DNA of 19,692 nucleotides from a virus (lineage: Duplodnaviria > Heunggongvirae > Uroviricota > Caudoviricetes), in the IMG/VR virus record IMGVR_UViG_2778261637_000010, positions 1 to 19,692 of that record, one strand, 5' to 3'. Under the pieces are notes generated by a model that saw only the letters and a program-made list of their open reading frames with translations, was not told where the DNA came from and did no database searches. Below, in pieces: positions 7,241 through 7,543 of this stretch. Within the stretch, counting starts at the first letter, position 1; every line of letters starts with the position of its first letter. A program made the translations under genes and the position numbers.

Positions 7241-7543
7241 ATGACACACATGATATTTCGTCATGGCGACATGAAGAAATGGAAAGGCGTTGGATACGAC
7301 TTTGAAATCGTGAAAGCCGAAGAGCTTCAGGAATATCTGGATGCTGGCTGGTTTGCACATCCTGATGATCTTCTGAAGGATGTTGCAGAGCCAGAGCCAG
7401 AGCCAGAGCCAGAGCCAGAGCCAGAGCCAGAGCCAGAGCCAGATCCAGAGCCAGAGCCAGAGCCAGAGCCAGAAGAAAAACAGCGTAAAAAGCCTGGTCG
7501 AAAACCTAAGGCGGCAGCAGATGAACCTGACAACGAAGGGTGA
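7241..7543 (+). CDS. Small acidic protein with (EP)n dipeptide-repeat tract and basic C-terminal tail, 100 aa
   Basis: ATG at 7241 after GGAGA (7231-7235); [49 protein letters not shown]-(EP)9-DP-(EP)4[23 protein letters not shown]; 3' end overlaps gp4 start. Same position as the small ORF between genes 5 and 4 in P22. Confidence 0.55.
7388..7471 (+). repeat. Perfect hexanucleotide tandem repeat (GAGCCA)x14 with one GATCCA variant unit
   Basis: Counted directly: units start at 7388 and run in register to 7471; unit 10 (7442-7447) is GATCCA. Confidence 0.95.

Follow-up and report, generated by a model that had tools for sequence, protein, structure and literature searches.

Phages related to P22 carry a small gene between the coat protein gene and gene 4, which is called orf69 in P22 and gene 6 in epsilon34. 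The paper describing the epsilon34 genome (Villafane et al. 2008) treats it as 'gene 6', a gene of unknown role with homologues of differing length, and describes the P22 copy as having an internal deletion (PMC2629481). It is also reported there, citing Eppler et al. 1991, that orf69 is non-essential in the laboratory, a result that applies to P22 only (PMC2629481). A search of the literature returned nothing functional on orf69 beyond this paper. In P22, orf69, whose product is MKIAIYKPGGSIMVWGVMAQMKVIDSSELPEYVKDGWLDHPSKLLPVEADDVKPRKGRKPKAVSDADKD, follows the coat gene and an annotated stem-loop and overlaps gene 4 by 17 nt. Here we compare with these genes a small open reading frame (ORF) at positions 7241-7543 on the plus strand of IMG/VR virus record IMGVR_UViG_2778261637_000010, positions 1 to 19,692. 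This whole stretch of 19,692 nucleotides is called the window below. The small ORF contains a hexanucleotide microsatellite that encodes a Glu-Pro (EP) tract, and the number of repeat units differs widely between relatives.

The small ORF runs from an ATG at 7241 to a TGA at 7541-7543 and encodes 100 aa. A Shine-Dalgarno sequence, GGAG, is read at 7231-7234 on the plus strand, 6 nt before the ATG, and P22 orf69 has a GGAG at the same spacing from its start. The protein matches phrog_1175 with an E value of 2.3e-32 (residues 1-98 on profile positions 1-72 of 72) and has 392 homologues in the database. A pairwise BLASTP comparison with P22 orf69 gives 38% identity over 37 aa (E 2e-7). The order coat, hairpin, ORF and overlapping gene 4 is common to P22, E. 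coli prophages, a metagenomic contig (L014) and a Symbiopectobacterium prophage (L016). In the family alignment G9, G36, W37, H40, P41 and K90 are invariant and a GRKPKA motif is conserved, and the N-terminal domain is 30-40% identical across P22-type, E. coli-type and metagenomic members. At its C-terminus the window protein has the basic motif (K/R)xGRKPKA and, after it, a short acidic end, and the P22 counterpart of this region is PRKGRKPKAVSDADKD. A search with the divergent family member P0133 as query returned 2 proteins only. Judged by these matches, the small ORF is the E. coli-lineage homologue of P22 orf69 and epsilon34 gene 6 (phrog_1175). It is not an orphan, and its P22 homologue is already known as a non-essential gene. 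Taken jointly, the identity, the coding frame and the hypervariability of the small ORF can be regarded as highly probable. Some database entries (P0011 and P0041) begin at a GTG at 7193; this start would cross the coat stop codon and the hairpin and would have no Shine-Dalgarno sequence, and ATG 7241 is preferred.

P22 orf69, epsilon34 gene 6 and ST64T Orf-186 (phrog_1175 and phrog_3769) occupy the same slot and share with the window protein a homologous N-terminal domain, an acidic linker and a K/R-G-R-K-P-K-A tail. However, the P22 linker is a non-repetitive stretch of 9 residues, PVEADDVKP, and the product is almost always 69 aa. The ST64T and epsilon34 types differ in carrying an extra WDGH domain and no repeat; ST64T Orf-186 (L018 901-1461) is such a long form. 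The GAGCCA microsatellite and the length polymorphism of 74-138 aa are found in the E. coli lineage only. A Pfam scan found no WDGH domain (PF25311) in the window ORF, and the domain is present only in long forms such as Orf-186 and the allele of E. coli SJC33 (L008 1141-1752). RefSeq calls this E. coli allele, with its inserted WDGH domain, an incomplete pseudogene though its frame of 203 codons is intact. The WDGH domain by itself occurs widely, in every case in a hypothetical protein, among phages whose hosts include Listeria, Bacillus and Streptococcus, and none of the papers found in our literature search mentions a 'WDGH domain'.

The microsatellite lies at 7388-7471 on the plus strand and by direct reading is (GAGCCA)9 GATCCA (GAGCCA)4, which encodes (EP)9-DP-(EP)4. 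Tandem Repeats Finder (TRF) reports one array at 7386-7473 with period 6, 14.7 copies, 97% matches and a score of 169, and no other strong tandem repeat is present in the 19.7-kb window. The 18-mer (GAGCCA)3 has 12 matches with at most 2 mismatches, compared to 0.00 expected from 200 shuffles. The EP tract follows an N-terminal part of 49 residues, which begins with MTHM and ends with KDVA, and precedes a C-terminal basic tail. The original prediction had placed the ORF at 7241-7543 and had read the (EP)9-DP-(EP)4 tract and the basic tail from it, all of which is correct on direct reading. It had also called the array a perfect (GAGCCA)14; there are indeed 14 units, but only 13 of them are GAGCCA, and unit 10 (7442-7447) is GATCCA.

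It had been predicted that the repeat number should vary between isolates and stay in frame, and this is what is observed. Units were counted directly from DNA, and the flanks of the compared loci are 95-99% identical. The window has 14 units. There is 1 unit in E. coli EC38 and there are 2 in Bas106, 5 in HZ41 and Louie, 6 in Dewey, 8 in IME10 and APC_JM3.2, 10 in the loci L010 and L011, 16 in E. coli AHB29, 17 in E. coli E4 and 19 in E. coli NRZ105822. The longest array, in E. coli 98195, has 33 units, all pure GAGCCA, and gives a product of 138 aa. The range is 2-14 units in 8 sequenced phages and, verified by sequence, 1-33 in E. coli chromosomes, and within the E. coli lineage the protein varies from 74 to 138 aa and the linker from 2 to 66 residues. 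Among 47 short-form matches in complete E. coli genomes, an evenly spaced sample in which copy number was inferred from span length, the range is again 1-33 units with a median of 5, and the 14 units of the window fall in the upper tail. The matches in which the flanks are at least 99% identical to the window have 4, 5, 6 or 9 units, which indicates that copy number changes faster than point substitutions accumulate. The P22-type alleles, which have no array, serve as a control: 18 of 28 protein matches are exactly 69 aa. Most of the other 10 (55-86 aa) are calls that are shorter at the N-terminus; the rest are the divergent members of the Tatumella and Symbiopectobacterium types and one match with an internal gap of 5 residues. 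TRF found no comparable repeat in P22 or ST64T.

The EP frame is open in all 18 DNA loci read, which comprise 17 short forms including the window and the long form L008, across 1-33 units. Because the unit is 6 nt and the frame is intact in every one of these loci, the variation is a length polymorphism and not on/off phase variation. A phase-variable contingency locus has a repeat unit that is not a multiple of 3 or a repeat in a promoter, and neither applies here. All arrays of at least 16 units are pure GAGCCA and the interrupted arrays are shorter. The array of L010 and L011 (allele P0009) has a higher-order 24-nt unit, GAGTCA GAGCCA GAGCTA GAACCA, that is itself duplicated and gives ESEPELEP repeats. 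This duplication is evidence of slippage at more than one period, and pure long arrays together with a higher-order unit are typical of microsatellite dynamics. The 105 protein alleles contain 498 dipeptide units, of which 491 have E or D at the first position; at the second position there is P in 404, S in 43, Q in 26, T in 12 and L in 12, and these units are not independent events. Conservation is thus stricter for the acidic residue than for the proline. In more remote members of the family the linkers are short, EP-rich and non-identical, as with EPEAEPEPV, so the microsatellite probably arose from an ancestral acidic, proline-rich linker. A few rare alleles are aberrant: P0121 (153 aa), P0122 (71 aa) and P0013 (93 aa). 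Two of these leave the frame at or before the array and are frameshifted or degraded prophage copies or sequencing errors, and in the third 13 residues are directly duplicated where the N-terminal domain ends.

Which frame is translated needs to be considered with care, since none of the six frames of GAGCCA contains a stop codon and open frames across the array are automatic on both strands. The ORFs on the minus strand at 6992-7690 (WL repeats, 232 aa) and 7327-7584 (GS repeats) are unsupported by-products of the stop-less hexamer. On the plus strand, existing annotations disagree. The EP-frame ORF is annotated in APC_JM3.2, which adds a repeat_region, in Bas106, and by RefSeq PGAP in the E. 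coli chromosomes inspected. The records of IME10, Dewey and Louie instead lengthen gene 4 upstream by way of the SQ frame. In these records the small ORF is missing and the extended gene 4 is spurious (NC_019501, IME10, 25847-26452; PQ850600, Dewey, 7126-7719; PQ850616, Louie, 7126-7713), and those of Dewey and Louie call a 45-aa 'hypothetical protein' overlapping the coat end in place of the small ORF.

Polymorphism in the N-terminal domain argues for the EP frame. Among 12 copies of 147 nt there are 13 variable sites, 9 of them at codon position 3, 4 at position 1 and 0 at position 2. Ten of the 13 polymorphisms are synonymous and the 3 replacements are conservative (D/N, L/I and A/S). The slot is conserved in P22, the metagenomic contig and the Symbiopectobacterium prophage, and the 203-aa ORF of E. 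coli SJC33 (L008) in the same slot has a related N-terminal domain and a WDGH domain (Pfam, 1.5e-39) in frame with (EP)5 and the same tail. The proposal that the ORF is coding in the EP frame is thus borne out. The other possibility, which had been named in the original prediction, is that the array is read in the SQ frame (AGC-CAG) as an N-terminal extension of the gene 4 product (gp4) from an ATG at 7380. From 7380 the gp4 frame stays open across the array both in the window and in 8 relatives among those read, and three phage records in GenBank/RefSeq (those of IME10, Dewey and Louie) annotate gene 4 in this way. However, openness is uninformative for a hexamer that lacks stops in six frames. 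In alleles L010 and L011 a TAG stands one codon before the gp4 ATG, and in allele L012 a GAGCTA unit creates a TAG within the array, with no in-frame start afterwards. Because TAG closes the gp4 frame in these three alleles, the SQ extension cannot be a conserved part of gp4. The upstream ATG is also missing from L008. P22 gp4 starts at the codon homologous to ATG 7521, and with gp4 counted from this ATG the alignment to the Pfam P22_Tail-4 model begins at residue 2. On this comparison the true start of gene 4 is ATG 7521, the EP frame is the coding frame of a real, conserved gene, and the SQ reading is very improbable. The GAGCTA unit of L012 lies in what appears to be a degraded prophage (Logan contigs L012 and L013, allele P0073). 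There the coat gene is truncated beside lacY-like sequence, the gp4 ORF is fused to a gp16 fragment with the tailspike directly after, and the small ORF is intact.

The protein is predicted to have three parts, a folded N-terminal domain, an acidic proline-rich linker and a conserved basic tail. The N-terminal domain covers codons 1-45 (7241-7375, plus strand) and is supported by an AlphaFold2 (AF2) model, the polymorphism and a phmmer search. In the model it consists of a beta-hairpin (residues 2-14 and 17-25), a helix (26-34) and a short helix from residue 42. The predicted confidence (pLDDT) is 84-92 for residues 1-40 and 72 for the block 41-50. The EP tract and the tail have pLDDT values of 52-62 and no secondary structure. 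This layout matches the small N-terminal domain, acidic proline-rich spacer and basic tail that had been proposed from the letters. No hydrophobic segment is seen in a reading of the window protein. A search of BFVD with the N-domain model returned only uncharacterised small phage proteins.

A possible lead on function came from an exhaustive phmmer search of 1.84 billion representative proteins with the 49-residue N-domain. It returned only about 7 intact family clusters, with a small number of truncated or frameshifted variants. The search also returned 13 longer proteins that contain 3-6 repeats of a motif of about 38 aa, WIxKDGxxKxVxxEELQxYLDDGWxxG (E 5e-7 to 8e-4). These 13 proteins carry GIY-YIG and NUMOD3 domains, or a weak HNH signature under the cut-off, and they fall in PHROG families annotated as homing endonucleases (phrog_314, 655 and 12434). 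They match phrog_1175 reciprocally at 2e-14 to 1e-6. The comparison with hhalign gave 96% probability over the ELQxYLDxGW core, a value that is inflated because the repeat set was chosen from the N-domain matches. The module of the homing endonucleases and the N-domain share a strand-turn-strand-helix pattern and this core; they differ in that the endonucleases have 3-6 copies and the window protein has one, with a longer hairpin. By these similarities the N-domain is a single copy of a module of about 38 aa that is reiterated in the non-catalytic parts of phage homing endonucleases. Non-catalytic regions of homing endonucleases normally house DNA-binding modules. Pfam, NCBIfam and PHROG scans found no nuclease domain (GIY-YIG or HNH) in the window ORF.

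The basic tail, at 7478-7513 on the plus strand, contains the AT-hook-like sequence G-R-K-P-K-A, and G86, R87, K90 and A91 are invariant or nearly so in the family alignment. The family member P0133 has RRGRPPK at this place and matches Pfam AT_hook with E 0.047 and 14 bits, which is under the cut-off. The window tail is by its sequence AT-hook-like only. GRKPKA is kept through third-position differences in the P22, L014 and L016 lineages (GGT/GGC/GGG, CGA/CGC, AAA/AAG, CCT/CCC/CCG and GCG/GCT). These synonymous differences imply that the tail is constrained at the protein level too.

The junctions of the small ORF with its two neighbours are also conserved. Directly after the coat stop there is a GC-rich stem-loop, AGGGAGC-TTCG-GCTCCCT, followed by a T-run (7204-7226, plus strand), which was found in a terminator scan and for which RNAfold gives -12.9 kcal/mol. 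A hairpin of different stem sequence is in the same position in P22, L014, L016, L007, L008 and Sf6, and it is annotated as a stem_loop in P22 (L009 6102-6119) and as the 't coat' terminator in Sf6 (L023 2148-2174). The hairpin of the window resembles an intrinsic terminator or attenuator, or else a hairpin that stabilises mRNA. Across these phages the post-coat hairpin probably sets how much coat is made relative to the downstream gene products, either as an attenuator or by stabilising an mRNA 3' end. An Rfam scan found no RNA family in 7000-7700. At the other end, the small ORF overlaps gene 4 by 23 nt (7521-7543), and there is an overlap of 11-23 nt in every relative. The Shine-Dalgarno sequence of gene 4, AAGG at 7508-7511 on the plus strand (cctAAGGcggcagcagATG in the window), lies within the K-A codons of the tail, and it is at the same distance in P22, L014, L016, L007 and L008. 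Because the stop of the small ORF overlaps the gene 4 start and the gene 4 Shine-Dalgarno sequence is inside the tail codons, the two genes are probably translationally coupled.

Several better known proteins resemble parts of this one. The EP repeats had been compared with those of TonB, whose (EP)n-(KP)n spacer is likewise an alternating Glu-Pro tract followed by a basic segment containing Lys and Pro. The proline-rich tract of TonB behaves as an extended rigid spacer. The likeness in composition stands but membership of the family does not: the Pfam TonB_N match is at E 0.0022 and 19.1 bits compared to a cut-off of 33, the NCBIfam TonB match is at 8e-5 and 22.6 bits compared to 315, and neither scan found the TonB membrane anchor or the C-terminal TonB domain in the window protein. 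The TonB tract also differs in not being a hypervariable pure microsatellite. Trypanosome procyclin (PARP) has long pure EP arrays that are encoded by tandem repeats, and Trypan_PARP is the best Pfam match by composition (E 5.3e-6, 26.9 bits compared to a cut-off of 100), but the signal peptide and GPI context of procyclin is absent here and the match is compositional only. The same holds for SslE, ClfB and similar matches, all of which, like those to TonB and procyclin, are compositional and far under the cut-offs. Gene 6 of Sf6 and HkbT of HK620 are found in the same slot after the 't coat' terminator, overlap the gp4 homologue, and encode 61 aa with a KRGRKA basic tail. Homology with these genes is unsupported (hhalign probability 0.3%), and they have no repeat.

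The following explanation is considered moderately likely as a whole. The small ORF is a real gene of the late operon, an accessory gene that is always located between the coat gene with its stem-loop and gene 4, and it would be expressed from the late transcript. In the E. coli lineage an ancestral short EP-rich linker would have turned into the GAGCCA microsatellite. Replication slippage, which we infer as the mechanism of the copy-number change and which is standard microsatellite behaviour, would add or remove whole 6-nt units, so that the linker lengthens or shortens and the frame is kept. The core function is independent of the array, since P22 and ST64T have none. The EP tract would then be a tolerated, probably extended acidic spacer between two functional ends, the N-domain and the tail, which in P22 are joined by nine linker residues. 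By analogy with the EP tracts of TonB and procyclin, the spacer may be polyproline-II-like. The protein itself may be a small late non-virion accessory factor that acts when heads are assembled and DNA is packaged, either by binding nucleic acid or by bridging DNA and an assembly component. Nucleic-acid binding is proposed because the N-domain is a copy of the homing-endonuclease repeat and the tail is AT-hook-like. This function is the weakest step of the explanation, and taken by itself it is a tentative proposal that could well be wrong. Translational coupling to gp4 is plausible as an additional or alternative role.

A number of points weigh against this explanation, most of them against the function. 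Translation of the small ORF and an activity of its product are both putative. The AF2 model was built on a shallow alignment of 15 sequences. No solved structure resembles the N-domain in searches of the PDB, including 2LSM, so its fold gives no hint of function. DNA binding by the repeat of about 38 aa is inferred from its location in the endonucleases, and the repeat has no Pfam model. The window tail has no Pfam AT_hook match (E<=1; cut-off 17.4 bits), and it reads P-G-R-K-P-K compared to the canonical R-G-R-P. Conservation of the K-A part of the tail could be partly at the nucleotide level, because the gp4 Shine-Dalgarno sequence is embedded there. A long polyanionic EP tract beside the basic tail could equally inhibit DNA binding. 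Lastly, as orf69 is non-essential in P22, any role it has must be subtle or conditional.

Among the alternatives, the one that best survives is that the small ORF is mainly regulatory. It has been noted above that the upstream hairpin and T-run are kept despite different stem sequences, and that the gp4 Shine-Dalgarno sequence and an overlap of 11-23 nt are found within the ORF in every relative. Once the hairpin has attenuated transcription or defined a processed mRNA end, translation of the small ORF could bring ribosomes to the overlapping start of gene 4. The peptide would be dispensable and its linker free to drift, and for this reason a microsatellite would be tolerated in it. The wide variation in linker length and the fact that the P22 gene is non-essential (PMC2629481) are consistent with this. 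However, there is purifying selection on the N-domain at the amino acid level, the domain is 30-40% identical across types with G9, G36, W37, H40 and P41 invariant, and the tail motif is kept through synonymous changes. A pure coupling leader needs no folded domain and would not gain a WDGH domain. This alternative as the whole explanation is therefore rather unlikely, though a regulatory role and a role of the protein are not mutually exclusive.

It could also be asked whether the protein is a packaging or head-completion chaperone like lambda gpFI, bridging the procapsid or portal to the terminase-DNA complex, with the length of the EP tract setting its reach. The lambda FI gene is located beside the coat gene, before the head-completion genes, and the small ORF similarly lies between the coat gene and head-completion genes. 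Both products are small: gpFI is a non-virion protein with two ends and a flexible linker, and the model of the window protein suggests the same layout. The published account of gpFI is of a packaging chaperone that forms a bridge from the capsid to the terminase-DNA complex and that can be bypassed, although it is essential in vivo, and no such accessory factor is listed for P22 in Table 1 of the same paper (PMC13595911). Against this, the proposal is one of synteny alone: no sequence or fold relation to gpFI was detected, including in PDB searches with 2LSM among the structures. Packaging in P22 has been reconstituted and studied genetically without this factor. gpFI is essential in vivo (PMC13595911) and orf69 is reported not to be (PMC2629481). 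Such a role is improbable.

A bolder version of the nucleic-acid-binding proposal is that the orf69 family is a domesticated, nuclease-less, single-repeat homing-endonuclease module with an AT-hook-like tail that acts on DNA late in infection, and that the EP spacer of the E. coli lineage, a polyanion with regular charge spacing, is under diversifying selection and is not neutral. A module of this kind might block a site against related homing endonucleases or might assist packaging. The selection could be for tuning of the spacer length or for a decoy or mimic directed against a host or phage factor, and the range of 1-33 units would then be an adaptive 'tuning knob'. This is held to be slightly less probable again than the chaperone role.

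It is hardly credible that coding is incidental and that the array is either an artefact of assembly or an element acting at the DNA level, for instance as a recombination hotspot or a binding site for a protein. In favour of this, long pure arrays of a hexamer are very unusual among enterobacterial phages, and there is none in P22. Against it, independent finished genomes and phage isolates from many countries share both the unit and the phase of the array, its acidic first residue (491 of 498 units) fits a constraint on the protein, and no DNA-level function can be conserved since there are only 1-2 copies in many functional phages such as Bas106 and none in P22, ST64T, L014 and L016.

Returning to the late accessory gene with a slippage-variable linker, its surroundings in the window are those expected of a P22-like phage. 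Its gene content, identified from Pfam and PHROG scans, is that of the late (virion-assembly) operon in a phage or prophage that is P22-like and belongs to the genus Lederbergvirus. The small terminase gene is at 273-767 and the large terminase gene at 745-2247, and these are followed by the portal (2808-4976) and scaffold (4990-5901) genes, which have the size and order of those in P22. The gene for the coat protein, of the P22 gp5 type, is at 5901-7196 on the plus strand (Pfam P22_CoatProtein, 5.1e-166) and is the upstream neighbour that defines the slot. Gene 4 (7521-8021, plus strand) encodes a head-tail adaptor homologue of 166 aa (Pfam P22_Tail-4, 8.8e-58, residues 2-160), and gp10 is encoded at 8021-9439. 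The antirepressor and a tailspike head-binding domain are encoded farther downstream. The nearest sequenced phages are E. coli IME10, APC_JM3.2, Dewey, Louie, HZ41 and Bas106, with 97-98% identity around the locus, and a matching prophage segment is present in 217 of 5,426 complete E. coli genomes.

Other features of the window are at a distance from the small ORF. Upstream of the small terminase gene there is a DUF2560 ORF (1-243, 1.1e-43). A 166-aa ORF on the minus strand between the large terminase and portal genes (2257-2757) has a Pfam HNH_3 domain (2e-13) and an AP2-like C-terminal part. The terminase and portal genes abut in P22, and this ORF is therefore taken to be an inserted free-standing gene of the homing-endonuclease type. 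Dewey and Louie have an HNH endonuclease gene at another site, just upstream of the coat gene. The sar antisense RNA (Rfam RF00262, 94 bits) is at 16438-16505 on the minus strand and is the only Rfam match in the window; its position across the start of the antirepressor gene (16440-17441) is the one seen in the immI region of P22. Three minus-strand ORFs upstream of the antirepressor gene (14702-15943) have no Pfam match.

A theme that emerges from this comparison is that a conserved gene of the P22 assembly cluster tolerates a linker of 2-66 residues, and that the parts under constraint are the N-domain and the GRKPKA tail. The conflict of annotation in the P22-like phages of E. coli is settled, as the EP-frame ORF is the gene and the SQ-extended gene 4 of IME10, Dewey and Louie is an artefact. 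The domain shared with the repeat regions of homing endonucleases is the first functional lead for orf69. In the searchable literature there appears to be no description of the microsatellite-driven length hypervariability within the E. coli lineage, of the link between the N-domain and the repeats of homing endonucleases, or of how the gp4 mis-annotation is resolved. The general view of phage biology is unchanged unless the length variation is adaptive, of which there is so far no sign. The locus is a tidy and well-supported example of a microsatellite that is coding and in frame within a structural operon of a phage. For closely related Lederbergvirus prophages of E. coli, the array is a ready-made marker of high resolution with which they can be typed and tracked. 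It is also a natural system in which the rate of slippage in a phage genome can be measured.

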